NCBI GenBank assembly: GCA_016839365.1
Contig: JAEOUH010000039.1
Span: 1-31,469, forward strand
From: Candidatus Hermodarchaeota archaeon
Lineage (GTDB): Archaea; Asgardarchaeota; Hermodarchaeia; Hermodarchaeales; Hermodarchaeaceae
Reading direction: 5' to 3'
Length of the DNA: 31,469 nt
Shown here: one piece after another, positions 2,387 through 28,196 of the stretch
Layout of the letters: every line of letters begins with the position of its first letter
Position numbering within the stretch: the stretch's first letter is position 1
The notes under the pieces: generated by a model
The model's database searches: none
What the model saw: the letters and a program-made list of their open reading frames with translations, nothing else
What the model was told of the DNA's origin: nothing
Program-made: the position numbers and the translations under genes

Positions 2387-3841
2387 ATGTTACAGGTATA
2401 TAATACGCTTTCACGGAAGAAGGAGCCTTTCAAACCCCTACATGAAGGTGAAGTTCGCATGTATGTCTGCGGGCCCACTGTATATGATTCAGCACATTTA
2501 GGCCATGCGCGCTCAATTGTGGCCTTTGATGTAATCAGGCGTTACCTGGAGTACAAGGGCTATGATATGCGCTTTATTCAAAACTTCACGGATATCGACG
2601 ATAAGATGATAAATCGTGCACAAGAGCAGAATACGACCACGACCAAATTAGCAGCGAAGTATATCCAAGAGTATTTTGAAGATTTTGATAAGCTACATGT
2701 GAAACGTGCCACAGCATACCCGAAGGCTACCGAGCACATCCAAGAGATGATTGCACACATCAACAAATTAATCACGAAAGGGTTTGCCTACGAGGCAAAT
2801 GGCAGCGTGTATTTCCGGGTGTCAAGGTTCAAGCAATATGGCCGCCTATCACGTCGGGACCAGGGGGAGGAGATGCCATTTGAGCAGGAAGATCAGGACG
2901 CTGGAGTGATTGAAGAGAAAGAGCACCCTGAGGATTTTGCGTTATGGAAGGTCATGAAGCCAGGTGAACCGAGTTGGGACTCTCCGTGGGGAAAAGGTCG
3001 CCCAGGCTGGCATATTGAATGTTCGGTTATGTCGACAAAGTATCTAGGCGACCCCATTGACGTTCATGGGGGTGGCCTTGATCTGGTGTTTCCCCATCAT
3101 GAAAACGAGATTGCCCAATCCGAGGCCTTATCGGGTCAACCCTTCGTTCGGTATTGGATGCATAATGGTTTTTTAACGGTGAACCGCGAGAAGATGTCCA
3201 AATCTTTGGGGAACTTTTTCACTATTCAAGAAATTACTGCGAAATATGATCCAGAGATTGTTCGCTTATTCCTCGTTTCATCGCACTATCGTAGCCCGAT
3301 TGATTTCAGTGATGCTCAGCTTGAGGAGGCAAAGGCTCGGTTGGCACGAATTCACAACTCAATCGACCTTATTCAGCGACGGCTGCGCGAAGCCCGGGTG
3401 GAGGAGGCAAAGAATCCGAGGAAGCCATCGGAGGCAGATACGAAGATGTGGGAGGCGCTATCCACTTTCGAACATGAATTTGAGTCAGCTATGGATGATG
3501 ATTTCAATACCCCTGAAGCCCTCGCTAGCCTGAATAAATTCCTGACTACACTGAATACCATGGTAGTAGGGAACCAATCAGTGACTGCCGGAACGTTAGA
3601 AAAAACCTTCATCAGCCTTGATGCTGTTGGCGAAGTCTTGGGGCTATACCGTGAACGGATGGCATCAGGTGCAGCCGATGACCGAACGGTCGACGGATTA
3701 GTGAAGATGCTAATTCGAATCCGGGATCAAGCCCGAAAACAAAAAGATTTCAAAACAGCGGACCAAGTCCGTAATCAACTCAAGGACTTGGGTATTATCT
3801 TAGAAGACGAAAAGACTGGAACTGTATGGAAGTGGGGATGA
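2387..3841 (+). CDS. cysS: Cysteine--tRNA ligase
   Basis: YVCGPTVY, HLGH (HIGH), DFALWK, GRPGWHIECS, HGGGLDLVFPHHENE, KMSKS. ATG at 2387. Confidence 0.97.
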   Translation: MLQVYNTLSRKKEPFKPLHEGEVRMYVCGPTVYDSAHLGHARSIVAFDVIRRYLEYKGYDMRFIQNFTDIDDKMINRAQEQNTTTTKLAAKYIQEYFEDFDKLHVKRATAYPKATEHIQEMIAHINKLITKGFAYEANGSVYFRVSRFKQYGRLSRRDQGEEMPFEQEDQDAGVIEEKEHPEDFALWKVMKPGEPSWDSPWGKGRPGWHIECSVMSTKYLGDPIDVHGGGLDLVFPHHENEIAQSEALSGQPFVRYWMHNGFLTVNREKMSKSLGNFFTIQEITAKYDPEIVRLFLVSSHYRSPIDFSDAQLEEAKARLARIHNSIDLIQRRLREARVEEAKNPRKPSEADTKMWEALSTFEHEFESAMDDDFNTPEALASLNKFLTTLNTMVVGNQSVTAGTLEKTFISLDAVGEVLGLYRERMASGAADDRTVDGLVKMLIRIRDQARKQKDFKTADQVRNQLKDLGIILEDEKTGTVWKWG

Positions 3842-5121
3842 GATTGAAGGCACTAATTCTCGCGGCGGGATATGGCACACGATTACATCCTTTAACTCAG
3901 CAGCGACCAAAGGCCATGATACCGCTCCTTGGTAAACCGATGCTGCACCATGTGATTGATACAGTCCGTGAAGCGGGTATGAAAGACATTGTGTTAGTTG
4001 TGGGTCATTTCCGTGAGCAGATTGAAGCGTATTTCGGTGAAGGAGAAGACCTCGGAATTACTATCAGCTACTCTGAGCAGGCTGAACCGAAAGGAGAATA
4101 CGACGCAGTTCTGGCCGCTGAAGATCGCCTAGCGGATGAGGACCGTTTCCTAATGACTGATTGTGACATCATCACAACAACTGAACGTTTCAAGGCGACA
4201 TTGAAAGCCGCCAAATCTAGTGATATGGCTTTATCGTTATTTGAGGTGCCAAATCCTTGGCAGTTTGGGGTTGTCGCTCTGGAAGGGACTGAAATCACAA
4301 CTATTGTTGAGAAACCCAAGAAAGGAACTGAGCCAAGTAATCTCGCTGTAGCAGGTGTCTACGTTTTCAACAATGCAATCTTTGACATGCTTCGAAAAAC
4401 TCAGGATTTAGAAGTGGGGATTCAGAAACTTATCGACGAAGGGCATACTGTCCATGGAAGCCATTCAAAGGATCCTTGGGTTGACGTTGGACGCACCTGG
4501 AATATCCTCGAAGCTTCTCCAATCCTCTTCGACCGATTGCACCAACAGAAAGGCGATCCCGTCCATCCAACAGCAACCGTTAGTGATTCTGCACATCTCA
4601 GTGGGGACGTGTGGATAGGTCCACAAGCCCGCGTGTTTCCAGGGGCAGCCTTAGTGGGACCCGTTTATATCGGTCCCAATGCCATTGTTGGCAATAACTG
4701 TCTAATTCGTGATCACGTTGTAATCGATCAAGGAGCAAGAGCCGGCTTTTCCTGTGAAGTTCGAAATACCGTTATGTTACCTGAAAGTAGAATTGGTCAC
4801 CTCGCCTTTGTTGGTGATAGCATCCTTGGATTTGATGTGGAGATTGGGGCGAGTGTTGTGTTGGCCAACTACCGATTCGATGGCTCAGAAGTTCAGGTAA
4901 TGCTAGGCGGGCAATTAGTTTCTACGCATACAGACAAATTTGGCGCCGTCATCGGGGACGCATCGAAAATCGGATGTGGTGTCGTTGTATTGCCAGGGCG
5001 AACTATTGGGTATAACTCATGGATTGACCCCTCGATTGTTGTCCAAAGGGATGTGCCCGACAATACGCATGTTAAGCTCAAGCAAACCACAACAGAAGAT
5101 CATCGCCACGCCCCTACCTAA
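3838..5121 (+). CDS. Bifunctional sugar-1-phosphate nucleotidylyltransferase/acetyltransferase (archaeal GlmU-like)
   Basis: LAAGYGTRLHPLT..RPK, VEKP, W.DVGR.W, and a C-terminal hexapeptide left-handed beta-helix. ATGA overlap with the cysS stop. Confidence 0.88.
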   Translation: MRLKALILAAGYGTRLHPLTQQRPKAMIPLLGKPMLHHVIDTVREAGMKDIVLVVGHFREQIEAYFGEGEDLGITISYSEQAEPKGEYDAVLAAEDRLADEDRFLMTDCDIITTTERFKATLKAAKSSDMALSLFEVPNPWQFGVVALEGTEITTIVEKPKKGTEPSNLAVAGVYVFNNAIFDMLRKTQDLEVGIQKLIDEGHTVHGSHSKDPWVDVGRTWNILEASPILFDRLHQQKGDPVHPTATVSDSAHLSGDVWIGPQARVFPGAALVGPVYIGPNAIVGNNCLIRDHVVIDQGARAGFSCEVRNTVMLPESRIGHLAFVGDSILGFDVEIGASVVLANYRFDGSEVQVMLGGQLVSTHTDKFGAVIGDASKIGCGVVVLPGRTIGYNSWIDPSIVVQRDVPDNTHVKLKQTTTEDHRHAPT

Positions 5122-6517
5122 TTTCCCGTTTTAATGTCTCTTGGGCATTTTTGAGAAGGCCCTTCGCCCTTTGCGCTGAAAATGCTTCAACTGTAATGCG
5201 GATGACCGGCTCTGTACCAGACGGCCTGATGAGCACCCAGCTAGAGTCATGGAAACTGGCACGAATACCATCAATTCGATTCACTTCTTCGATGTTCTTC
5301 CATTCTTCGAATACTGATTTGATTGCTTTCATCACAGCCTCTTTTTTCTCGTTAGGACAAGTCACAGATGCCCTTAGTAGATGGGTTGATGGTAGATCAT
5401 CTGCGAGTTGACTCAAGGAGCGGTTTGCCCATTCGAGGAGTTCAAGTATTTTACATGCTGCAAGTGGTCCATCGGGACAATAATGCACCTCTGGAAAGAT
5501 GAACGGCCCAGAGGGTTCGGCACCCATCACGGCTTTATGTTCTTTGACTAGATTGGAAACAAAAACGTCGCCAACTCGGGATCGCTCAACCCGTGCACCG
5601 TGCTGTTTTACAACCTGATCGACGACACTCGAACTTGACACGGTAGTGGCAATGACCTTACCTCCCCGGGTAGCAAGATAGTAATCTGCAACTAATGCCA
5701 AGAGGATATCCCCTGCTAGAACTCGTCCTTTATCATCGACTGCTAACACGCGGTCTGCGTCGCCATCATGGGCAATTCCGACATGCGCTTTGGTTGATGT
5801 GACGATTTCACTGAGATTATCAAGGTGTACGAAATGTTGCCATTCTGCAGCTGCGGCACTTTGTATCTTTGATGGAGGGCAATGCTGTGCATATTCCTGT
5901 CCATCAGGGGGAGTATTAAGAGGTTTGACGCTAGCGTGTAGTTGCTGAAGCGCTGAGGGGGTGACTAAGCTTCCAACACCGAGTGCGCCGTCCATAACAA
6001 CATTGTATGATCGGGTCACCTCGCATGCATTCACTATAGCATCGAGGTGATGCGGAATGGCTTCAAATGAGCTGAAATCAGTGAACTGTTTCCAATCTAC
6101 GGGCTCAGCTTTCATAATCCGCTTTTCGAGTTCTTCCTGTTGGATCGCTGTGAAGCCCGCCCCATCGGGATTGTGGAATTTGAAACCATTGTATTCGGGA
6201 GGATTGTGACTTGCAGTCACAATTATCGATGCGTGCATGCCCTCTTTTCCTGACGCATAGGCAATAGATGGTGTGGGTGCCATCTCGGTTCTTGTGACGG
6301 TAACTCCTCCCTCTAGTAGTCCGGCCATTAACGCTGAAGTCAACATTGGGCCAGTAGTCCGATGATCATGCCCCACCATTATCTGTGGATGCTTCACTAT
6401 AGCACTTAGATAGTCTGCAGTCGCCAGACCAATTCGGATAGCCAATGGACCAGTGATTAACTCATTGACTTTTCCCCGGATACCTGAGCTTCCAAACAAG
6501 GATCGTGTTGAATACAT
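5114..6517 (-). CDS. Alpha-D-phosphohexomutase (GlmM/PMM family), paralog 1
   Basis: FGSSGIRG, TASHNP, DGDADR, GAEPSG, RPSGTEP. Confidence 0.92.
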   Translation of the reverse strand: MYSTRSLFGSSGIRGKVNELITGPLAIRIGLATADYLSAIVKHPQIMVGHDHRTTGPMLTSALMAGLLEGGVTVTRTEMAPTPSIAYASGKEGMHASIIVTASHNPPEYNGFKFHNPDGAGFTAIQQEELEKRIMKAEPVDWKQFTDFSSFEAIPHHLDAIVNACEVTRSYNVVMDGALGVGSLVTPSALQQLHASVKPLNTPPDGQEYAQHCPPSKIQSAAAAEWQHFVHLDNLSEIVTSTKAHVGIAHDGDADRVLAVDDKGRVLAGDILLALVADYYLATRGGKVIATTVSSSSVVDQVVKQHGARVERSRVGDVFVSNLVKEHKAVMGAEPSGPFIFPEVHYCPDGPLAACKILELLEWANRSLSQLADDLPSTHLLRASVTCPNEKKEAVMKAIKSVFEEWKNIEEVNRIDGIRASFHDSSWVLIRPSGTEPVIRITVEAFSAQRAKGLLKNAQETLKREIR

Positions 6518-6544
6518 GATAATTCTCCATTTAATGTTGCTTTA

Positions 6545-7924
6545 TTATGAAGCAGCAGATTTGAGTACATCTTCAATCCAATCAAGCCCTAGTGTAAGGA
6601 GTTCCTGAGCTCGTTTTTCCTGACGCGATTCCGCAAAGCACCGAAAGACCGGTTCTGTACCGGATGGACGGAGAAGCAACCAGCCATCATCGAAAATGAC
6701 TTTGACTCCATCTGCGGTATTGACTTGTACATTGGGATAATCTTTTCTCACCATTTCTAGAGCATACAAGGTAACAGCTTCTTTGAGATTATTAGGGCAA
6801 TCAATTGCGCGTTTTAATTGGGTGTACTTGGGGAATGCATCAATAATCTCACTTAGCGTCTTTTCGGTACGTGCCAAATACTCCAACAAATAAGCGGTAC
6901 CAAGACCACTATCCGAAAGGTAGTTGAGACGAGGGTAGATTATTTTACCAGATTCTTCAAAAGCAAACAGTGCGTTGTGCTTTTTGATGGCAGCCACTAT
7001 CGCTGGTGGTCCAACGCGGCTATACACGATGCGCGCTTTAAATTGCCCAACGACATCTTCAACTAGGTTACTAGAATTGATTGGTGTGACGATGGTGCCT
7101 CCCCCCTCACGGATTAGCTCAATCTGAGCCAGCAGGGTGCCTGAAACATCACCCATGATTGCCCGTCCTTTATCGTCGACAAAGAACGCACGGTCAGCAT
7201 CACCATCAACAGCGACACCCAGATCTGCCCTTTGTTGTTTTACCAACTGAACCGCTTGATCCAAGAGGTTAACTCGTAAATTAGGAGATCGACCAGGAAA
7301 CGTAGGATCCCGTTCGGTGTTAAGCTCGATAACTGTACAACCCAGTTGTTTGATGGCATCTAGCAGCCAGGGGATAGCTGTGCCATTTGCAGCATCAACA
7401 ACTACACGAAAATTTCGTTTGGCAATAAGACCTGCATCCACTTGTGTTACGACCTTGTTTATCCAAAAGGAACCTACATCAGAAGCTTGTCGGAGGCGTC
7501 CATAATTCTGCCAATTCACAGGTGCGGCTTTTGAAATATTGAGCGCTTCGATTTGTTTTTCAACATCACGTGGGACTGGGGCACCATCATGGTCGAGTAC
7601 TTCAATCCCAGACATATGAGCGGGGATATGGCTGCCAGTGATTAAGATTGCCCCTCCCAAATCGCAATGGCGGGGATACAAGCTTACAGCTGGTGTGATG
7701 ACTTCGCCTCCATAATGAGCGTCAGAGCCTCCTGCCATTAATCCACTAACGACAGCGTTTGTCAGCATTGGGCTGCTTGTACGGTTATCGTGGCATACTA
7801 AAAGAGGTGCACCCTTGAAAACCGTGGCGACACTATAGCCGATTTGCCAAGCAACCTCTGGATGCAGTTCATCGGGGACAGAGCCACGAATACCACTAGT
7901 GCCAAAGCAGGGCGTCCATGTCAT
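6545..7924 (-). CDS. Alpha-D-phosphohexomutase family, paralog 2 (atypical phosphoserine loop)
   Basis: FGTSGIRG, TGSHIP, DGDADR, AFEESG, RPSGTEP. Confidence 0.9.
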   Translation of the reverse strand: MTWTPCFGTSGIRGSVPDELHPEVAWQIGYSVATVFKGAPLLVCHDNRTSSPMLTNAVVSGLMAGGSDAHYGGEVITPAVSLYPRHCDLGGAILITGSHIPAHMSGIEVLDHDGAPVPRDVEKQIEALNISKAAPVNWQNYGRLRQASDVGSFWINKVVTQVDAGLIAKRNFRVVVDAANGTAIPWLLDAIKQLGCTVIELNTERDPTFPGRSPNLRVNLLDQAVQLVKQQRADLGVAVDGDADRAFFVDDKGRAIMGDVSGTLLAQIELIREGGGTIVTPINSSNLVEDVVGQFKARIVYSRVGPPAIVAAIKKHNALFAFEESGKIIYPRLNYLSDSGLGTAYLLEYLARTEKTLSEIIDAFPKYTQLKRAIDCPNNLKEAVTLYALEMVRKDYPNVQVNTADGVKVIFDDGWLLLRPSGTEPVFRCFAESRQEKRAQELLTLGLDWIEDVLKSAAS

Positions 7925-8056
7925 TATGAAACCTCATTCAAGAGCTGCGTCTTACATCATATCGCTATGCTTAAAAAGCCCTTTTTATAGCGTGGTTTTT
8001 TCTACAATGCACAAAGCAAAGAAGTTAAATTCGCAGACTACTCTAAGCTTGTTAGG

Positions 8057-8767
8057 ATGCGGGTCGTTAAGTCTGCAGATTCCCTCGGGAATCCTCAATC
8101 AATGGATGAAGACCATCTTGCTGCGGTCATCCGTGAGTTCGGACGCTCAATGCGTGAGGTCACCGGAGGTCTGGATGATGCTATGAATCGGTGGGAATCA
8201 GCCCACCGCGGTTCACTTCGACCCATTCGAGTCATCCTTGGCTCATTATCTAAAATTAATTACCTTCGTAATATTGAGGATCTTGGAAAACTTACTTCTT
8301 TTGAGGGTATCGTCGATAGAGCTATCACAAAGAACATGGGACTCCTCGATAAAGTGCTCCCCAAGTTGTTAGCCCTAGCGTCCGATTTTGAAAGTTCGAT
8401 CAGAAAAATGCGGCTAATGGAAAAACGAGTCTCCGAATTGCAACGTCGTGGAGGCAATCTACTTAGTTCTGAGGGAAGCAACGAACCACGGATTTATCAA
8501 TTGGTTGAAAACGTCGACGCCCTTAGCCGGAAGCTTCGTGAAATAGTGTGCATGTACGAGGATGAATACCTATTTCGATTGAAAACAATCCGGAATATCG
8601 AAGAGCTGTTGGATCCAAAGGAGCTCTATACCGGACTGCTCTTATGGACCATGGAGCCATACCTGGAGGCGGATCGTATCGAAGTGATCCGTAAAGAAAT
8701 CGGAACTCACATTGAAGAGACTCGATCACTTGTGTCCCGCCAAAACATTTCCCCGAATATGTTTTAG
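8057..8767 (+). CDS. All-helical hypothetical protein, candidate C1orf109/CINP (CK2S-family) homolog
   Basis: 236-aa ORF filling the gap between two mutase genes, with an amphipathic helical pattern. By-eye similarity to eukaryotic C1orf109 (N-half) and CINP (C-terminal MY..E...DP......L..W...PY.E.D). The start could be the later Met (MDEDHL). Confidence 0.6.
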   Translation: MRVVKSADSLGNPQSMDEDHLAAVIREFGRSMREVTGGLDDAMNRWESAHRGSLRPIRVILGSLSKINYLRNIEDLGKLTSFEGIVDRAITKNMGLLDKVLPKLLALASDFESSIRKMRLMEKRVSELQRRGGNLLSSEGSNEPRIYQLVENVDALSRKLREIVCMYEDEYLFRLKTIRNIEELLDPKELYTGLLLWTMEPYLEADRIEVIRKEIGTHIEETRSLVSRQNISPNMF

Positions 8768-8845
8768 TTGGATATCGCGGGACTGAACTAGCCCACAGAT
8801 TAATACCTTCGCAGGTAGGTTTGATGATTACAAGAGGAGACTCCG

Positions 8846-10225
8846 TTGACCCGATTGTTTGGGACGCAAGGGTTCCGAGGCATTGTCAATAGAGAACTCA
8901 CGGCATCAGTGGCATATGATGTGGGCCGTGCATTAGCTGATTATCTTGAAGGACCGAAGACCATTGGTCTAGGATGGGATTCCCGCCAATCCAGTGAAAT
9001 GCTTGGATTTGCCTTTAGTGCGGGCTTGATGACTGGAGGTTGTAACGTTCATATTCTGGGTCTGGTTCCCACGCCTCTGTTATCTTATGCTATTCCTCAA
9101 CTCAAATTGGATGGGGGAGTAATGATTACAGCAAGTCATAACCCACCGGAATACAATGGCATTAAATTGTGGGGTCCAGATGGCGCATCTTTTACAATGG
9201 AAATGGGACGGGCAGTTGAGGACTGTTATTTTGTTGAAGACAGACCTTTACCTGAATGGCAGGCTTGTGGGCGTCTCGTTCCCTCTGAGGATTTCAGGTT
9301 GCAGTATATCGAAGCCCTGCTCGAGCAGGTTAATGGACAACGTCTCATGAAACGACAGTTCCAAGTTGCTGCTGATTGTGGTGGAGGCGCCGCGGCTATG
9401 GTTGTTCCGGCCCTGTTGAATGCAATAGAGGTACGGACCAAGCTTCTTTACTGCGAACCTGATGGTCTCTTTTCTAACCGGTTACCAGAACCTAAAGAGG
9501 CTAATCTCCAAAAATTAATTCAGACCGTTAAAAAGAATGAACTCGATGTAGGGATGGCCTGGGATGGTGACGCCGATCGAATTATCCTAATCACAAATCA
9601 AGGGCGATACCTTATGGGTGATCGTGTCTTCGCACTCGCAGCATATCATTCGCTTCGAGACCTCCAAGAGAAGCCAAAGCGTATCGTTACACAAGTGGCG
9701 ACCAGCGATGTCATCCACGAAGTTGCGCTCCTTGTTGATGCAGAGATAATCGAAACGCGGGTCGGTGAACCCTTCATAGTCCAGGCAATGAAATCTAAGA
9801 ATGCGGTGATTGGTGGTGAAGAAAATGGGGGAGTTATCTACCGCGGATGGTCTTGGACCCGAGAAGGGATGCTTACGGCATTGAAGATTCTTGAACTCAT
9901 GGAATTAGAAGACAAATCTCTAGAAGAGCTAGATAGCCAATTTTCCACCTATCATCAGGTTAAAGAGAGTGTTCACTGCGACCTTCAAGAGAAGGATACA
10001 CTCCTTGAGCTCATTAAAGAATATGCTCCCTCTGAGGTTGAGTGCAGCACCATCGATGGAATCAAAGTTCGATACTCTGATGGGTGGGTTCTTCTCCGCC
10101 CCTCTGGAACCGAACCCATCTTTCGCGTCTTTGCAGAGGCAAAAACTGAAACCCGAGCAAAAACATTAGTCAATCAAGGGCTCCAAATCGTATCTGATGC
10201 TCTTGGAGATATGAAAACAAATTAA
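8846..10225 (+). CDS. glmM: Phosphoglucosamine mutase / PMM-PGM, paralog 3 (most canonical archaeal type)
   Basis: LFGTQGFRG, TASHNP, DGDADR, GGEENGG, RPSGTEP. SD-like GAGGAG upstream of TTG. Substrate specificity is not certain. Confidence 0.8.
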   Translation: MTRLFGTQGFRGIVNRELTASVAYDVGRALADYLEGPKTIGLGWDSRQSSEMLGFAFSAGLMTGGCNVHILGLVPTPLLSYAIPQLKLDGGVMITASHNPPEYNGIKLWGPDGASFTMEMGRAVEDCYFVEDRPLPEWQACGRLVPSEDFRLQYIEALLEQVNGQRLMKRQFQVAADCGGGAAAMVVPALLNAIEVRTKLLYCEPDGLFSNRLPEPKEANLQKLIQTVKKNELDVGMAWDGDADRIILITNQGRYLMGDRVFALAAYHSLRDLQEKPKRIVTQVATSDVIHEVALLVDAEIIETRVGEPFIVQAMKSKNAVIGGEENGGVIYRGWSWTREGMLTALKILELMELEDKSLEELDSQFSTYHQVKESVHCDLQEKDTLLELIKEYAPSEVECSTIDGIKVRYSDGWVLLRPSGTEPIFRVFAEAKTETRAKTLVNQGLQIVSDALGDMKTN

Positions 10226-10242
10226 TAATATGGTGAAATGCG

Positions 10243-10665
10243 TTGCGTTTGTTGATTTTTCATGGGAATATAGCCTACAAGCCTACTGAAGCAGTAAGGA
10301 TCAGTATTCGTGATGAAGCCAAGGAGGATACCTGGCAAGAATTCGAAAACTGCTTAACTGTTTTTTGTGCCGTAGAAGCTTCTGATGAAGGGCGGTTATC
10401 CGAAATTGTGCAAAAGGCGACAGAAGAAATTCAGTTGGTGGCTAACAGAGTCAAGGTTGGGAACATTGTGTTATATCCACATGCACACATCTTTCCCCGG
10501 AAACTCGCCAAACCCAAGTTCGCTGTTAGGATATTGCAGAATTTACTGAAGGCCTTAGAAGATCAAGGCTTCGTGGTGCACCAAAGCCCATTCGGTTGGT
10601 ACAAAGCCTTTAAGCTCGAATGCTATGGCCACCCCCTAGCTGAAAGCGGAAGAAGTATAGATTAG
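10243..10665 (+). CDS. Free-standing archaeal threonyl-tRNA synthetase editing-domain protein
   Basis: VFCAVE..D, LYPHAH, SPFGWYKAF.L.CYGHPLAE.GR. Confidence 0.9.
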   Translation: MRLLIFHGNIAYKPTEAVRISIRDEAKEDTWQEFENCLTVFCAVEASDEGRLSEIVQKATEEIQLVANRVKVGNIVLYPHAHIFPRKLAKPKFAVRILQNLLKALEDQGFVVHQSPFGWYKAFKLECYGHPLAESGRSID

Positions 10666-15178: not shown

Positions 15179-16387
15179 GTGAATTTGGAGGACCATTGCT
15201 TGCGTAGGTTCACTAACACCTTGATTCTCGGGCTTATTCTTATTGTATTGGCTAGCCCTTTGACTGCCTTGGCGGCGCCTTCTCGACAGGATGTTATCAT
15301 TCCCTTCTCCGTGACTTGTTTAGATAGCTCTGGTGGTGCAGTCTTGCGACCAGGTGAGTCACTTCCCCAAATATCTCATACCTTTGCCATAGCCAACGTC
15401 TTTGACACCCTTGATGCCTGGATTGCGGCGGACCTCCTCACCCCAGATCGGGGTTTAATTGAAAACATGACAACTTGGGTCACTGGACTTTTCGTCGATG
15501 AAATCGCTTCGGATCCAAGCTATGGGGGATTCCGACCCTATAATGGATTTCCGAACGCAACGCTCTCAGCAAGTGCCTTTGCAGCCCAAACCCTCGATCT
15601 CCTCAATCAAACAGATAGTATTGATTCCTCTATTCTCATTGATTTCACTATAAACCTACAGCACACCAATGCCACTTTGTATCCTGACACGATTGGTGGG
15701 TTCATGGATTGGGCTAACACCTCTGCTACAGTGTCTGCAACCTATTCTGCAATCCAAATCCTTAACGTGTACGACGCGATTTCACAAATGAACACCTCTT
15801 TAGCAATTGACTGGTTGAATTCCAGCCAACTCTTAACAGATTCACTCTCTCCCAGCTATGGAGGGTTTGCTAACGGGCGAAACTCTACAACAGCAGACTT
15901 GCAGACAACTTATATGGCCTTGCGTAGCCTCGAAATACTCGGAGCCCTATCAATAATCGATGAAGAAGCCGCGATTGATTACATTCTTCCCCATTATCGC
16001 GACGATGCAAATTATCCTCAACACCAAGGAGGCTTCAGTTATACGCCAGACAACCCCGTCGCTACCCATCTGGCAACTTTTTATGCAGTAGCTAGTTTAC
16101 AAATCCTTGGCGCAGAGAGCCAGCTAGTTACAGAGGATATCACCGCATGGATACTCAGCAAACAGACTCTTGACGGCGGCTTTAATGATATCAGCGGAAT
16201 CAATGGAACTGCCCCACAAACAAATTTCGCAGTTTCCACTCTAGCCTTACTTGACCAACTTGCCCTGCTTCATTTACCAGTGGGACCTGATCTCTTCGTC
16301 TTTCCATGGTGGATTGTCGCTGTTGTCGTAATTATCGTTTTGATCGTATTGTGCATTATTATCGCTCGACGGGCTGAAATATTCTAG
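15179..16387 (+). CDS. Membrane-anchored extracellular prenyltransferase/squalene-oxidase-repeat (alpha/alpha toroid) protein
   Basis: N-terminal signal peptide, five GGF......T..A...L..L repeats, C-terminal TM helix followed by RR. Confidence 0.75.
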   Translation: MNLEDHCLRRFTNTLILGLILIVLASPLTALAAPSRQDVIIPFSVTCLDSSGGAVLRPGESLPQISHTFAIANVFDTLDAWIAADLLTPDRGLIENMTTWVTGLFVDEIASDPSYGGFRPYNGFPNATLSASAFAAQTLDLLNQTDSIDSSILIDFTINLQHTNATLYPDTIGGFMDWANTSATVSATYSAIQILNVYDAISQMNTSLAIDWLNSSQLLTDSLSPSYGGFANGRNSTTADLQTTYMALRSLEILGALSIIDEEAAIDYILPHYRDDANYPQHQGGFSYTPDNPVATHLATFYAVASLQILGAESQLVTEDITAWILSKQTLDGGFNDISGINGTAPQTNFAVSTLALLDQLALLHLPVGPDLFVFPWWIVAVVVIIVLIVLCIIIARRAEIF

Positions 16388-17994: not shown

Positions 17995-18858
17995 TTGGGG
18001 TTGGTGACCTGCGTGCCTAGAGAATTAGTGATGCTCCGCATTGTTGACACCGGTGAAACAGTTCAAATCACCGATGCAGCTCCAGCGAAGACCCACTTGA
18101 AAGACGATGAAGTCCTCATTGTCATCGACGATGAGGAACGGCTAATTTGGATATGGAAAGGTAATGATGCCCCTGTCCGAAGAAAGTTCATTGCAGCCCG
18201 TCGTGCATCTGGCATCCGAGACCAGCGAGGTCTTGTTTATAAGATTCTATCTGAGGACCAAGGTCAAGAGGGAGCGAAATTCCTGGAGTGTATGGGATTA
18301 CCACTCTCAACCAAGCCTGATGAGGCCATGAAAGCACCACCTTCCGCCCCACCCATGCCGAGGCAAGCCACGGAGCCGGTAGCTGAACCACCAAAACCAA
18401 CTCCAATCCAAGGAACGAAACCTGCGGACTATCGAGAAGCTGTGGTGACAGCGACTAGAACACCAGACCGTCAGACAGTACAGGTTCCGCATGTGCCATC
18501 TGAAATTATTGAACAGGTTGAAAAACTTGAACCAGTTCCAGGTTTTCGCCGAGAATTCGTGTTGATTGGGTTCGATGCCTTTGGCATCACCGAAGAAATT
18601 ACCAGTGTCTTAGGTAAAACAACGAAAACACGAAAATTACAGCGTATTGATTCGTTACCTGAAGGTACTGTCTTCGCCCAAGGATATACCCCACGGGTAG
18701 TGATTAAGGATGGACAAGTCTTGGCTATCGAATTCCTCAAACATCTAGAGGAAGAAGAATACGTGCACGAAAAAGAAGCTGTTAAGGAAGAGATGGCACG
18801 ACAGATTACTGAACTAATTGAAGCATCTCGAAGTGAAAAGAGCCGTCAAAAATCATAG
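17995..18858 (+). CDS. Asgard gelsolin-domain protein with C-terminal X domain (1DGelX-like actin regulator)
   Basis: Gelsolin domain (VLIVID....IWIWKG..A..RRKFIAARRA..I......DQGQE...F), a Pro-rich linker, then an X-like domain (EKLEP.PGFRREFVLIG...LPEG......PRVVI.DGQVLAIEFL). The true start is probably a few codons downstream. Confidence 0.8.
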   Translation: MGLVTCVPRELVMLRIVDTGETVQITDAAPAKTHLKDDEVLIVIDDEERLIWIWKGNDAPVRRKFIAARRASGIRDQRGLVYKILSEDQGQEGAKFLECMGLPLSTKPDEAMKAPPSAPPMPRQATEPVAEPPKPTPIQGTKPADYREAVVTATRTPDRQTVQVPHVPSEIIEQVEKLEPVPGFRREFVLIGFDAFGITEEITSVLGKTTKTRKLQRIDSLPEGTVFAQGYTPRVVIKDGQVLAIEFLKHLEEEEYVHEKEAVKEEMARQITELIEASRSEKSRQKS

Positions 18859-18875
18859 GATTACGAGGGGATAAA

Positions 18876-19271
18876 ATGCAACAGTTTGCGATGAGCGAAG
18901 AAGAAGCCAAACAACTAGCAATGTATCTGCGCGAAATCACGTTGTATACAGAACTTGAAACACTGGCAGTGGTCACAAAAGCGGGTCGACGGGTAGCATT
19001 CAGCTCAACGAAGGGTGTTAACATTGATCCAGATTTATTATCAGCGATTTCTGCGGTCTTGCTACAGACAGGTATCGAAGCGGTGGAGAAACTAGCTTTC
19101 GAACCATTGTTTGAACTCATCGTTCGCGGGGAAAAGGGTATTATTGTGGTCACAGACGCTGGACCTTTAGTGCTCATTGGGGCAGGAGTCAAGATTGAAT
19201 CATTGGGACATGTCGTATCTGTGTTCCGACACTTTGGGCGCGAAATCGCCTCGTTATTTTCCAAAAAGTGA
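18876..19271 (+). CDS. Roadblock/LC7 (LAMTOR/MglB-like) domain protein
   Basis: LAVVTKAG..VA, D.DLLSAISA.L, ELIVRGEKGIIVV..AG, LG.V; ~130 aa. Confidence 0.85.
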   Translation: MQQFAMSEEEAKQLAMYLREITLYTELETLAVVTKAGRRVAFSSTKGVNIDPDLLSAISAVLLQTGIEAVEKLAFEPLFELIVRGEKGIIVVTDAGPLVLIGAGVKIESLGHVVSVFRHFGREIASLFSKK

Positions 19272-21617: not shown

Positions 21618-22766
21618 TTAGAAGATGGTAATAAACCGGGTTGCAGGCTCACTGCGAAGTCGTACAGCAACATGGTCATTATTAAGCTGGAGAAAATGCC
21701 GTTCATGTTCTGTTAGCTTTTGATCAAGGGGGGAAAGGACTGCATCGAGGCCATTTGTGAGAATGAAGTTACCAACCTGATTGACCATTGGATTTGATTG
21801 ATTGACCTTCGTTTCAAAAAAGACCAAGGGACTCTGTAAAGCCGCATAACGAGTACAGAGCCAATAAGCCAGCTTGGGGGAGAGCTCAGGTGGATTAACT
21901 AGGAAGAGGGGAGGAAGAGAATTTTCCTCGCGTGAAATAAGCTTCATGAGCAGTAGGTTCATTGCAAAAACGCTAGTTGGTGTATCAGTAACCGAGATTA
22001 TTGTTGGAAGATGCGTGATATGAGACAAGGCGACATTGTCATAATTTGGTTTGAGTAGGTCATGGGGGAGGGCATCAATTAAGCGGCGTATTTCAAAATA
22101 AGAAGCACCATGATGGTGATAAAATGATAGAGTATTTTGGAGGTACTCAATTGACGGTTGAGCAGCCGACAGAAGTATTTTCCAGATAATTACGTGAAGA
22201 AGATTCCGAGCTGTAGGAGAGAGAGGATAGAACTCTTCAAAGAGTCTTATAAGGATGCTAATCTGCTGCGAGGGATGCAGTCCACCGCCTAAGTTCAAGG
22301 CGTTGAAGGTGATTTCATCCTTTTCTAAGTCTAGATGCCACAGGGGACCTTCACAGACTTGTTGTTCGAGACCCTCTGAGGGCGCCCCTTTGATGACAAT
22401 GACTGGGATGCGGTGATCGTCATGAAGTTGTATGAGCAGATTGAAGTAGATGTCTTGAGCCCTGGGACCGACAACGAAGAGGTTGATGAGGTCTTGAAGT
22501 GTCAATGAAAAGGGGTGAGTTTGATGGTTCTGTATTAGGTATCCGATTTGAATCAACCCGGTCGTGTGGTGCGATTCGAAGTTAAAATGCGAACTTTCAT
22601 CCGACAAGCCGTTTCCCCACATTCCATGCGGGTTCCGCCTCTTTTTTAGGTATTCGTGATAGTCTGTTTTAATAGACAGACATACTGCAGAGAGGTCACT
22701 GAAAGTAATCGCTGACCTTACTCCACTATGCCGTTTCCTATTTAAGCGATAAGCGGTAATGCTCAT
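21618..22766 (-). CDS. Hypothetical protein, degenerate HerA/VirB4-like ATPase fold
   Basis: Order of elements matches HerA-type ATPases (IG......PF.L...DL.NLFVVGP..., IPVIVI, FNAL, PSI..L), but there is no GKT/S. The start may be Met at 22622. Confidence 0.5.
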   Translation of the reverse strand: MSITAYRLNRKRHSGVRSAITFSDLSAVCLSIKTDYHEYLKKRRNPHGMWGNGLSDESSHFNFESHHTTGLIQIGYLIQNHQTHPFSLTLQDLINLFVVGPRAQDIYFNLLIQLHDDHRIPVIVIKGAPSEGLEQQVCEGPLWHLDLEKDEITFNALNLGGGLHPSQQISILIRLFEEFYPLSPTARNLLHVIIWKILLSAAQPSIEYLQNTLSFYHHHGASYFEIRRLIDALPHDLLKPNYDNVALSHITHLPTIISVTDTPTSVFAMNLLLMKLISREENSLPPLFLVNPPELSPKLAYWLCTRYAALQSPLVFFETKVNQSNPMVNQVGNFILTNGLDAVLSPLDQKLTEHERHFLQLNNDHVAVRLRSEPATRFITIF

Positions 22767-24406: not shown

Positions 24407-24539
24407 TCGAATTCTTGTGAAGATGAGCTGCGCGCTATCGCAAGGATTTAAGTCGGACGGAAACTCGTTTCCAAGCCTGTTTGCGCCCGTTTTACTGAAT
24501 TAGGAAAAGTATATGTGGTTTCCAAGAAACGGAAGGCTC

Positions 24540-26024
24540 ATGTCCCAGCCAGCGGTGGATCCAAAAAACAGTGGTTTCTGTCCCTCCTGCCATATCAATA
24601 TGGCAGAACGTTACTGCAAAGAATGTGGACAAGTCTTTTGTCTCCCTTGTTCACGTCAGGATAACAGCGAATTCTACACCTGTGCCCGCTGCGGACCGGA
24701 CACCATCGAAGAACGGGAAGAGGGTGAATGGGTTTGCACCGAATGTGATGGACCCGCTCAGTTGGCGACCCGCCGAGTCCATCTTTGCCCAAATTGTGGC
24801 TCCGAGGGAATCGTCCCAATTCACAATATGCGACAAGAACTGGTTGGCCGCTATCGGACGACTTACTACAGGCTTAGAACAGGTCATGAACTGCTATCAG
24901 GATTTGCTGCCCGGTTGCGGATTTTACGATGGCGAATCCGAGAATTACGAACAGCGAGTTTTCTGCATGACCCAGATGTGGAAAAGGAACTCCTTGATCT
25001 GATTAAATCTGACTTGTCTAGCGTCCAAGAACGTATTCTCTTTCGTGCACGGAGTGTAGTCGAACGGCATCGAGCAAGCAAGATTCGCTTTTTGCACCCA
25101 GAACGTTGGACCATCACAGACTTTCCCTTGCTGGCTGGTCTAATCGAAGCGATCCAAGAAGACGTGGCAGACTACCAGGCCTATTGTCGTGATCTTGTCG
25201 GTGAGCTAGACGTAAAACTTGCTACCATCGAGGCCCGGCTAACCAAGATTGCCGAATGGCACAAACTCTTCGATGACCACATCGAATATCTTCCACTTAT
25301 TGAGAATGAACGACCCGTTGCTGCTATTCATCCTGTGAGCCTGAACAAAACCGACACGAATGAAAGGATGGGTAACGGAATCTTATTCATCACCAGCAAG
25401 CGTTTGATCTTTCTGGGGCGGAAAGGGTTCTTTACCAAAGAAACTAGGGTCATCCGTTCATTAGCCCTTGCGGAAATCACCGATGTTGAGCTTGAAGGAC
25501 GGATTCGCAAACGGCTACGAGTCGCAATTGAAAATGATGAGTTGAAACTTGGTGGCCCCTCAAGAGTATTGGAAGACATCCCGGATGCCATTAATTTAGC
25601 AACAAGCTTCTCGGAGCACAGCCTGGTCACTACCTCGGGTTCTCTGCGTATTCTAAATTTAAAGGTCGATGTGACTTCTCTGCGGGATGAATTGGATCAA
25701 CTCATTAATTACGCAATTTCTCCTGAGGACGGAGACCTATCTCGCCAACCTGAGGGGTCTCGCCCTTATCCATATCCCGATGGGTATTATCCTCGGTTTT
25801 CTTCACGATCTGATGGGTTAGAGCGAGATCCTGTCTTCCAGCTAGAGCAACAGCGGTTTAGCATCGAATCCACTATGGAGTTGCTCAAGAAGCAGTTCGA
25901 GGAAGGAAAGCTGTCTGATGAGAAATTCTTCAAACAGTACCGTTCCCTAACTCAAGAACTGTATCTTGTGGAAGCCCGGATACGAGACACACAATCTCGT
26001 AAGGGTTTCGAAGACAAACGATAA
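24540..26024 (+). CDS. Multi-Zn-finger / coiled-coil / PH-like / steadiness-box (Vps23/37-like) protein
   Basis: Six CxxC pairs; a long helical region; PH-fold motif GILFITSKRLIF...LAEI.DV; C-terminal QQRFSIESTMELLKKQFEEGKLSDEKFFKQYRSLTQELYL, resembling the ESCRT-I steadiness box. Start at 24513 or 24540. Confidence 0.7.
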   Translation: MSQPAVDPKNSGFCPSCHINMAERYCKECGQVFCLPCSRQDNSEFYTCARCGPDTIEEREEGEWVCTECDGPAQLATRRVHLCPNCGSEGIVPIHNMRQELVGRYRTTYYRLRTGHELLSGFAARLRILRWRIRELRTASFLHDPDVEKELLDLIKSDLSSVQERILFRARSVVERHRASKIRFLHPERWTITDFPLLAGLIEAIQEDVADYQAYCRDLVGELDVKLATIEARLTKIAEWHKLFDDHIEYLPLIENERPVAAIHPVSLNKTDTNERMGNGILFITSKRLIFLGRKGFFTKETRVIRSLALAEITDVELEGRIRKRLRVAIENDELKLGGPSRVLEDIPDAINLATSFSEHSLVTTSGSLRILNLKVDVTSLRDELDQLINYAISPEDGDLSRQPEGSRPYPYPDGYYPRFSSRSDGLERDPVFQLEQQRFSIESTMELLKKQFEEGKLSDEKFFKQYRSLTQELYLVEARIRDTQSRKGFEDKR

Positions 26025-26054
26025 ATCAAGCTAACATTTGAAGGCGTACGTAAG

Positions 26055-26687
26055 TTATTCTTTAACTTCCTTTTTCAGGCGTTCAAGTTCTCGCTTTGTT
26101 CGCTCGCGTCGTTCCTCTGAGGTTTCGAGGAGCTCTTCTTCGCCTTCAGGCACAGAAGGTAGTTGACCTGCTTCTTCGAGGGCGATCATGGTTTCGATGT
26201 CCTCAAGTTCGGCATCAACCTCAGCGTCCATTTCTTCGTCCTCAAGGCCGAGTCCCAGGATTTCTTCGGTGGCTTCAGCTTCCTCAATGAGGGCTTGTGT
26301 TTCAAGAATAACTTCACGTGCGACCTCTGGTGAAGCTGTCTCTCGTAGGTTCTCCAGTTCAGCACCGATGCCTTTGAGGGCACTGATAACTTCAGTTTCT
26401 CCACGAGCTTGATCGATGGCTTCAACGCCACGTTCCATCAAATCGATTTCTTGCTCAATCAGACGGGCTTTGCGCAGATAGCGTTGACGTCTACGAAGCT
26501 GTAACTTCGCCGCCTTTCGATCACCCCGACGAACATAACGGATAGCTTTAATCCTCGAGTCCTTGGCCTTCGTTTCATATTGACGACCACGGACTTCAAG
26601 TTTGTCTGTTACCCGATGAATCCGGGCAATCGTGTCTTCTTTAGGTTCAGGTTTTTTCGGAAAGAGTTTTTCCCAGAATTTAGCCAT
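26055..26687 (-). CDS. ESCRT-III subunit, Snf7 family, Vps20/32/60 class
   Basis: N-terminal amphipathic MAKFWEKLF, basic helical hairpin with G.RKAA...LRRR..Y, acidic C-half with EVDAELE, LPSVP (MIM2-like), and a terminal helix. Confidence 0.9.
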   Translation of the reverse strand: MAKFWEKLFPKKPEPKEDTIARIHRVTDKLEVRGRQYETKAKDSRIKAIRYVRRGDRKAAKLQLRRRQRYLRKARLIEQEIDLMERGVEAIDQARGETEVISALKGIGAELENLRETASPEVAREVILETQALIEEAEATEEILGLGLEDEEMDAEVDAELEDIETMIALEEAGQLPSVPEGEEELLETSEERRERTKRELERLKKEVKE

Positions 26688-26691
26688 TTGT

Positions 26692-27309
26692 CTAGCCCTC
26701 CTCCTTTAATCGTTCAATTTCTTTTTCTAATTCAGAGACGCGCTTTTCGGGTTCGGGGAGTGAGGTACCTGTTTCTACTTCGATTTCTGAATCGAGCTCC
26801 CGAAGTGCGTCTTTCACTTCGCCATCAGTGACCTCGGTGGAAACGGCCATCCGGTCCATTCCCGCTTCGGCGACTTCTTGGGTCATTTCGAAGTGACGAA
26901 GGTTGCCTTCGATCTGATCAACAAGTTGTGCAACCTCAGGAACCTTAACCTGGTTCTTCAGTCCGCCAAGGGCAGAGTTGAGCTGGCCTAGGATTTTAGC
27001 CACTTCACCCATGGCTTCACTTTGGCGTAGTTGGGTTTGTAATCCTTCAATACGGAGACGATAGGCATCTACGCTCAGAGCCCATTTTTGGAATCGCAGA
27101 TGATGTTGAAGGTACATCCGCGTGGCATCCATATTACCCGATAACCGGTACTTTTTGGCCCGTTCACGGCTTTTACTCGCTTCTTTTTCGAGCATCTTCC
27201 GTTGTAAATCGAGCTTCCGGCAGAAGACATCAAGACGGAAGATGAGCTTCTTCAGATCGGGTCCACCGCCCAGCCAATTCATAAATCGGCGAATAGCAGA
27301 CATTGTCAT
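26692..27309 (-). CDS. ESCRT-III subunit, Snf7 family, Vps2/24/46 (CHMP1-3) class
   Basis: LIFRL..F.RKL......LEKE......AKK....GNMD.TRMY as in CHMP1/Did2; C-terminal ELEKEIERLK (MIM1-like). Start at ATG 27309 or 27303. Confidence 0.9.
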   Translation of the reverse strand: MTMSAIRRFMNWLGGGPDLKKLIFRLDVFCRKLDLQRKMLEKEASKSRERAKKYRLSGNMDATRMYLQHHLRFQKWALSVDAYRLRIEGLQTQLRQSEAMGEVAKILGQLNSALGGLKNQVKVPEVAQLVDQIEGNLRHFEMTQEVAEAGMDRMAVSTEVTDGEVKDALRELDSEIEVETGTSLPEPEKRVSELEKEIERLKEEG

Positions 27310-27647
27310 TAACCTACCACTGACACCCTTCAAATCGGGACTATTATACTTTTGGTCTATTAGCCTTTAATTGCACGGTTCCATATATCGATTCGCAAAA
27401 CCCAAGAGGTTTAGAAGCCTTTTAATGGCGTAGGACTTTGCCATGGAACAGCTTATGAATTGATAATTGGTTTAGGTTCAAAGGATCTACAAGACCGTCT
27501 TTTGTAAAGGGTCTCAATTACTGGGTTCGCCATTACCATCACTGTCCAAGGACTGACATTATATGCATAAAAACGTTTAACATTCAATTGTAAAGAGATA
27601 CAGAGACCAACATACATCAAAATAGTAACAAGTTAGGTGGTGGAAAC

Positions 27648-28196
27648 TTGCAAATAAACTCCGGTTTGTTGATTGCGATAGCAGAAATCGCAGGTATCTT
27701 TGTAGGATTCGGTGCCCTCATCGGAATCACTCGCGAGAACAAGATTGCGATAGCCCAACTTGCACGGATTCGCGGTGTGGTCATAGTTGGACTAGGATTA
27801 ATAATCGCCGCCCTTATACCGGTCGGTCTTAGCCTTTACGGCCTCACTGATCACACCCTCTGGTTTATTTCTAGCCTCATCTTCTTTTCTCTCAACTGGA
27901 CCGGCATCATCTTGTCTATGCGAGATCCTTTGTATAGAGAACTTATGAAAACCGAGATGCAGACCAGCCCAGTTATCTACGTACTTTTTTGGCTCGGCCT
28001 AGAGCTCCCCCTTCAAGCACCATTGGTTCTAACCATGCTTGGCTTGTTTCCTAATCTAGAATCCGCCTTCTACATAACTGCGCTCTTGTTTAACCTCTTT
28101 CAGGCTGCGTTCGCACTGGTGCAACTAGTCCATTCGCAAGCAGACTTACAAGAGCCTGGTAGGTCCACTAAATCGCAAGACCAAATAGCTGACTGA
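27648..28196 (+). CDS. Integral membrane protein of unknown function (~5 TM)
   Basis: Hydrophobic segments; IAEIAGIFVGFGALI N-terminus; SD-like AGGTGG upstream of TTG. Confidence 0.7.
   Translation: MQINSGLLIAIAEIAGIFVGFGALIGITRENKIAIAQLARIRGVVIVGLGLIIAALIPVGLSLYGLTDHTLWFISSLIFFSLNWTGIILSMRDPLYRELMKTEMQTSPVIYVLFWLGLELPLQAPLVLTMLGLFPNLESAFYITALLFNLFQAAFALVQLVHSQADLQEPGRSTKSQDQIAD

Follow-up and report, generated by a model that had tools for sequence, protein, structure and literature searches.

P0001, the 236-aa product of an open reading frame at positions 8057–8767 (+ strand) of the window, the 31 469-nt stretch of DNA analyzed here, is a Hermodarchaeial member of the Asgard CINP-like (CINPL) or CA109-like family and a full-length homolog of both eukaryotic CINP and C1orf109/AIRIM. 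Its homology to the two eukaryotic paralogs is shown by profile searches and by the predicted fold. As for function, we favor, with a probability of about 0.45, a reading in which P0001 would serve as a homo-oligomeric, non-catalytic cofactor of the Cdc48 N-domain, acting on substrates other than Rlp24. The eukaryotic AAA+ lid complex, 55LCC, is linked to human neurodevelopmental disease, and if P0001 does bind a Cdc48, it would provide a minimal two-gene model for the origin of this complex.

A conserved Asgard relative of CINP and C1orf109

The reading frame, with an ATG start and a TAG stop, is as described in the earlier note on this DNA, and the archaeal motifs quoted there are present in P0001. 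Among 10 orthologs compared over codons 16–236, pN is 0.076 against a saturated pS of 0.78, and dN/dS is about 0.03. A TATA-like box, TTAAATT, lies at positions 8025–8031 (+), about 26 nt 5′ of the ATG, and is kept in 11 Hermodarchaeia loci. Given the low dN/dS and the conserved TTAAAT before the ATG, this is a real gene under purifying selection, and the position of the box suggests a leaderless or short-leader transcript beginning near Met1. A scan for sigma-70 promoters and terminators, a method unsuited to archaea, was empty. Positions 8440–8780 are covered by two short contigs from the RNA libraries of one study, a match that does not demonstrate transcription.

Far from being the orphan that it had been taken for, P0001 has 32 close relatives, and a survey of Asgard genomes with the family profile, as the earlier note had suggested, gave matches in 118 of 301 sampled genomes, 115 of them with one copy. 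The gene is near-universal in 8 of the 30 sampled families (f1, 16/18; f6, 71/76; f21, 20/21; f15, 5/5; and four small families), and the same profile found no match in the others (for example, f4, 0/29; f9, 0/68). All named matches are Asgard (Hermod-, Thor-, Hod- and Asgardarchaeia), and none of the control genomes has a protein above the PF15011 cut-off. The family had been thought not to be a listed Asgard eukaryotic signature protein. It is in fact already known: CINP-like proteins of five Asgard clades have been published as an ‘isomorphic ESP’ (Köstlbacher et al., Nat Microbiol 2026, PMC12962969; bioRxiv 2024, 10.1101/2024.07.03.601958) that is absent from non-Asgard prokaryotes (PMC12962969), and P0001 adds a member. 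Like the published proteins it is homologous to CINP over the full length, and its named relatives come from several Asgard clades, Hodarchaeales and Thorarchaeota proteins included.

Searched alone, P0001 matches PF15011 over residues 33–182 (positions 8153–8602, +) with an E-value of 2.4e-4 and 21.5 bits, which falls short of the gathering score of 27 bits. Its relatives score 35–54 bits (maximum 54.5), above the gathering score, and the model matches all 34 aligned Asgard relatives (best E-value 1.6e-14). PF15011 is the Pfam family of human C1orf109/AIRIM, which, along with plant OPNR/OAP1/OAP2, is among the closest known systems. A profile of the Asgard proteins detects human CINP with an E-value of 1.9e-9, which improves to 6.1e-12 with 58 sequences, and the alignment covers nearly the full length of the family (profile positions ∼8–185). 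The match to human C1orf109 (E-value 0.15–0.19, positions 14–160) is not significant, and it ends near position 160, short of the C-terminal Trp motif. The signal becomes clear once distant Asgard relatives (18–30% identity) join the profile; a PDB search with the single P0001 sequence found neither CINP nor C1orf109, and neither was significant with a profile restricted to Hermodarchaeia. By language-model features in the Atlas, P0001 matches eukaryotic CA109-like clusters at 0.94.

These results bear out at the family level, beyond chance, the likeness to both human proteins that the earlier note proposed. They do not support its division of P0001 into a C1orf109-like N-half and a CINP-like C-terminus: CINP aligns along the whole of profile positions 8–185, and a profile of the N-half by itself matches neither human protein. 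The PF15011 region contains W46, the only invariant residue in the alignment of the Asgard family. The best-conserved C-terminal motif, residues 166–204 (M166, E168, E170, W197 and E200; positions 8552–8668, +), aligns to the C-terminal helices of human CINP, and both the N-terminal Trp of CINP and its C-terminal Tyr-Leu-x-x-Trp-x-x-x-Pro-Tyr motif lie within the profile match.

The protein had been described as all-helical, and its AlphaFold2 model (pLDDT 89.4, pTM 0.82) consists of five long helices with no strands, a five-helix fold in common with human CINP (PDB 8CIH, 8RHN, 9GWJ, 9LGO), at a structural identity of only ∼14%. When the model was compared with the PDB by Foldseek, a search proposed earlier with the 55LCC subunits in mind, the nine best matches were all CINP or C1orf109 chains (TMq up to 0.60, with the best TM to C1orf109). 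VIA-align ranked C1orf109 first (Z 15.0, 195 residues aligned at 3.9 Å) and CINP second (Z 14.8, 168 residues at 2.9 Å). Designed helical bundles come close behind (Z 14.2), so that little can be concluded about function from the fold by itself. A shape search of the Atlas with P0001 returned only generic bundles, with TM below 0.5.

A putative Cdc48 cofactor

The characterized relatives of P0001 in human (PMC12019325; PMC11055677) and plants (PMC12332008) are all adaptors of AAA+ N-domains. In humans, CINP pairs with C1orf109 in T-shaped heterodimers, which attach to the N-domains of SPATA5 and SPATA5L1, and CINP docks on residues 452–474 of GTPBP4 and on ES27A (PMC12019325). In contrast to the heterodimers and heterotrimers of eukaryotes, this genome has a single CINP-like gene, so that any dimer of family members in it would be a homodimer. 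Under the reading that we favor, P0001 would form a homodimer in place of the eukaryotic CINP–C1orf109 heterodimer, and this dimer would bind the N-domains of a Cdc48/VAT hexamer, guiding substrates into the pore. Rlp24, docked via GTPBP4 as in humans, is an unlikely substrate; an archaeal protein of ribosome assembly or replication would be more likely, as would general unfolding clients, with the 60S role a later eukaryotic addition.

Three Cdc48/VAT paralogs are encoded in the genome (G000), none of them on the contig that carries P0001. In best-hit scores, which are not a phylogeny, the AAA core of one of them, C27 (L082:319-2511 = G000:C27:20318-22510), is closer to human AFG2A/SPATA5 (662 bits) than to the p97 AAA core (651 bits), whereas the remaining two favor p97 (AFG2A 598 versus p97 638 bits, and 540 versus 592 bits). 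C27-like proteins, here termed group A, are the only Cdc48 type recovered alike in families f1, f5, f6, f10, f15, f21 and f26, in a grouping with a weakly resolved base in which f29 is not resolved. From these sequence comparisons, C27 appears to be the best candidate partner of P0001; naming a candidate partner is new here. Inspected by eye, the surroundings of the C27 gene include PCNA, primase, eIF2-alpha, L44e and a PIN-domain gene.

It is also quite possible, though in our estimate somewhat less so, that P0001 is a true homolog with an AAA-independent job, for example as a helical scaffold for ribosomes, RNA or DNA-replication proteins, and that the partnership with SPATA5 arose in eukaryotes only. 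Genomic linkage of the gene to Cdc48 is lacking: in 81 loci around CINP-like homologs (flanks of 1.5–5 kb) none of the ORFs is a Cdc48 gene, and the neighbors of the CINP-like gene vary between orders. No Cdc48 paralog co-occurs specifically with the gene among the sampled Asgard families; group A is present in gene-negative families too, and f4 and f9, without a single match, retain the same Cdc48 types. Yeast Drg1, moreover, functions without cofactors of the CINP/C1orf109 type (PMC12019325; bioRxiv 10.1101/2025.11.07.687187). Against an AAA-independent role stand the AFG2A-like Cdc48 in this genome and the fact that every characterized family member is an AAA+ cofactor.

The cofactor reading can be extended to an Asgard forerunner of 55LCC, in which a homo-oligomeric CINP-like lid would sit on an AFG2A-like group A Cdc48 and the CINP/C1orf109 and SPATA5/SPATA5L1 pairs would each have arisen by duplication; we regard this extension as tentative and rather unlikely in its entirety. 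A complete forerunner that already worked in large-subunit maturation, pulling an eL24-family protein or another placeholder from the archaeal pre-50S particle, is improbable. Such a role would fit the group A Cdc48 gene of this genome, which was seen by eye to lie amid translation and replication genes, as well as the same-strand genes after P0001, which encode a mutase, then a ThrRS editing domain, then eS26 and an RNA methyltransferase, and the long basic eL24 tail of this genus. The downstream gene run, however, is not preserved in other orders, and no separate Rlp24 was found in 36 genomes, each of which has one eL24-family gene. In the other gene-positive families eL24 is short, at 54–64 residues counted from the first Cys. 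Asgard Nog1 stops 160–217 residues past the P-loop and so lacks a counterpart of the GTPBP4 452–474 stretch bound by human CINP, and we found neither a Nog1 nor an eL24 tail that tracks the presence of the CINP-like gene. The Nog1 and eL24 evidence is therefore at odds with docking on pre-60S particles and RLP24 release of the 55LCC type; this apparent absence of the eukaryotic docking sites from Asgard proteins is new here.

The eL24 of this genus (L195:1495-1911 = G000:C78; L203:1267-1701) has a long Lys/Ala/Pro-rich C-terminal tail, giving 138–144 aa in all, compared with ∼55–80 residues from the first Cys elsewhere in Asgard. In this it resembles eukaryotic eL24, which also has a basic tail.

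Ancestry and duplication of the family

Plants carry counterparts of both CINP and C1orf109 (PMC12332008), which places the duplication that separated these paralogs before the animal–plant split. P0001 is also single-copy here, as the family is in nearly all positive genomes, and these two observations together make a pre-duplication status plausible: P0001 probably descends from the single gene that was duplicated into CINP and C1orf109 before animals and plants diverged. In the published tree, eukaryotes are monophyletic and sister to Hodarchaeales with UFBoot 99, inclusion of C1orf109 not being stated (PMC12962969). Because eukaryotes are placed with Hodarchaeales, P0001, from Hermodarchaeia, most likely represents a cousin of the ancestor rather than its closest proxy. 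The text of that study treats CINP only, with C1orf109 and SPATA5 appearing just in the reference list, and proposes no archaeal partner (PMC12962969). Plants with both cofactors and Asgard archaea with a single ancestor-type gene contrast with the description of 55LCC as eumetazoan-specific (bioRxiv 10.1101/2025.11.07.687187).

Two assemblies outside the 301-genome sample carry two CINP-like genes each: GCA_048938655.1 (L168:6001-6678 and L170:6001-6633) and GCA_048886025.1 (L174:3001-3678 and L176:3001-3633). The two types, P0042 and P0088, share 23% identity, lie on separate contigs of similar composition and adjoin Hodarchaeales-like clades in the Asgard gene tree. P0088 matches CINP with an E-value of 5e-4 and P0042 matches neither CINP nor C1orf109; their PF15011 scores are 37 and 45 bits, and both keep the C-terminal Trp motif. 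Tetranucleotide correlation between the contigs of the pair is 0.98, a value to be read against the 0.97 reached by other AT-rich Asgard loci, so that co-binning is possible. The pair could form an archaeal heterodimer, and in a stronger form of the forerunner model these deep paralogs would show that a heterodimer emerged earlier than eukaryotes or in parallel with them. The two-paralog lineage is new here.

The same paralogs, together with the patchy, family-by-family presence of the gene in Asgard and the uneven matches to the human proteins (6e-12 for CINP versus 0.19 for C1orf109), might instead indicate that P0001 is an ortholog of CINP only, from a duplication before the Asgard–eukaryote split followed by loss of C1orf109 in this lineage, or that it was transferred late from eukaryotes. 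We consider both very unlikely. Human C1orf109 may simply be the more derived protein, the Pfam model of the C1orf109 family matches all Asgard members, and the structure scores for the two are tied. Eukaryotes form one clade beside Hodarchaeales in the published tree, sequences in the Asgard-only gene tree cluster by family, and the GC content of the gene (0.466) is close to that of the genome (0.459). A generic helical bundle with a chance likeness would fit the single-sequence PDB search and the sub-threshold Pfam score of P0001 itself but is refuted by the profile match to CINP and the concordant Foldseek, VIA-align and Atlas matches, and eukaryotic contamination is likewise rejected by the GC content, by the intron-free gene amid archaeal neighbors and by orthologs in 16 Hermodarchaeia-type loci.

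Other genes in the window

The P0001 gene is flanked by divergent and tandem phosphohexomutase genes. Positions 3826–10225 hold three phosphohexomutase paralogs and a GlmU-like nucleotidyltransferase around it, and the same layout occurs in the sister genus (L045). A stand-alone archaeal ThrRS editing domain (PF08915) follows at 10243–10665, and then eS26 and the RNA methyltransferase. Positions 15179–16387 encode a prenyltransferase alpha-alpha toroid domain (PF00432) within a protein whose N-terminus is hydrophobic and whose C-terminus carries a hydrophobic anchor. Two ORFs are without a Pfam match, one of 382 aa at 21618–22766 (−) and one of 182 aa at 27648–28196 (+). The segment at 17995–19271 encodes a 287-aa protein, also without a Pfam match, and then a Roadblock/LC7 protein. 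At 24513–27333, two Snf7-family ESCRT-III genes converge on a gene for a 503-aa protein that contains Zn fingers and has weak matches to a PH domain and to the Vps23 core.
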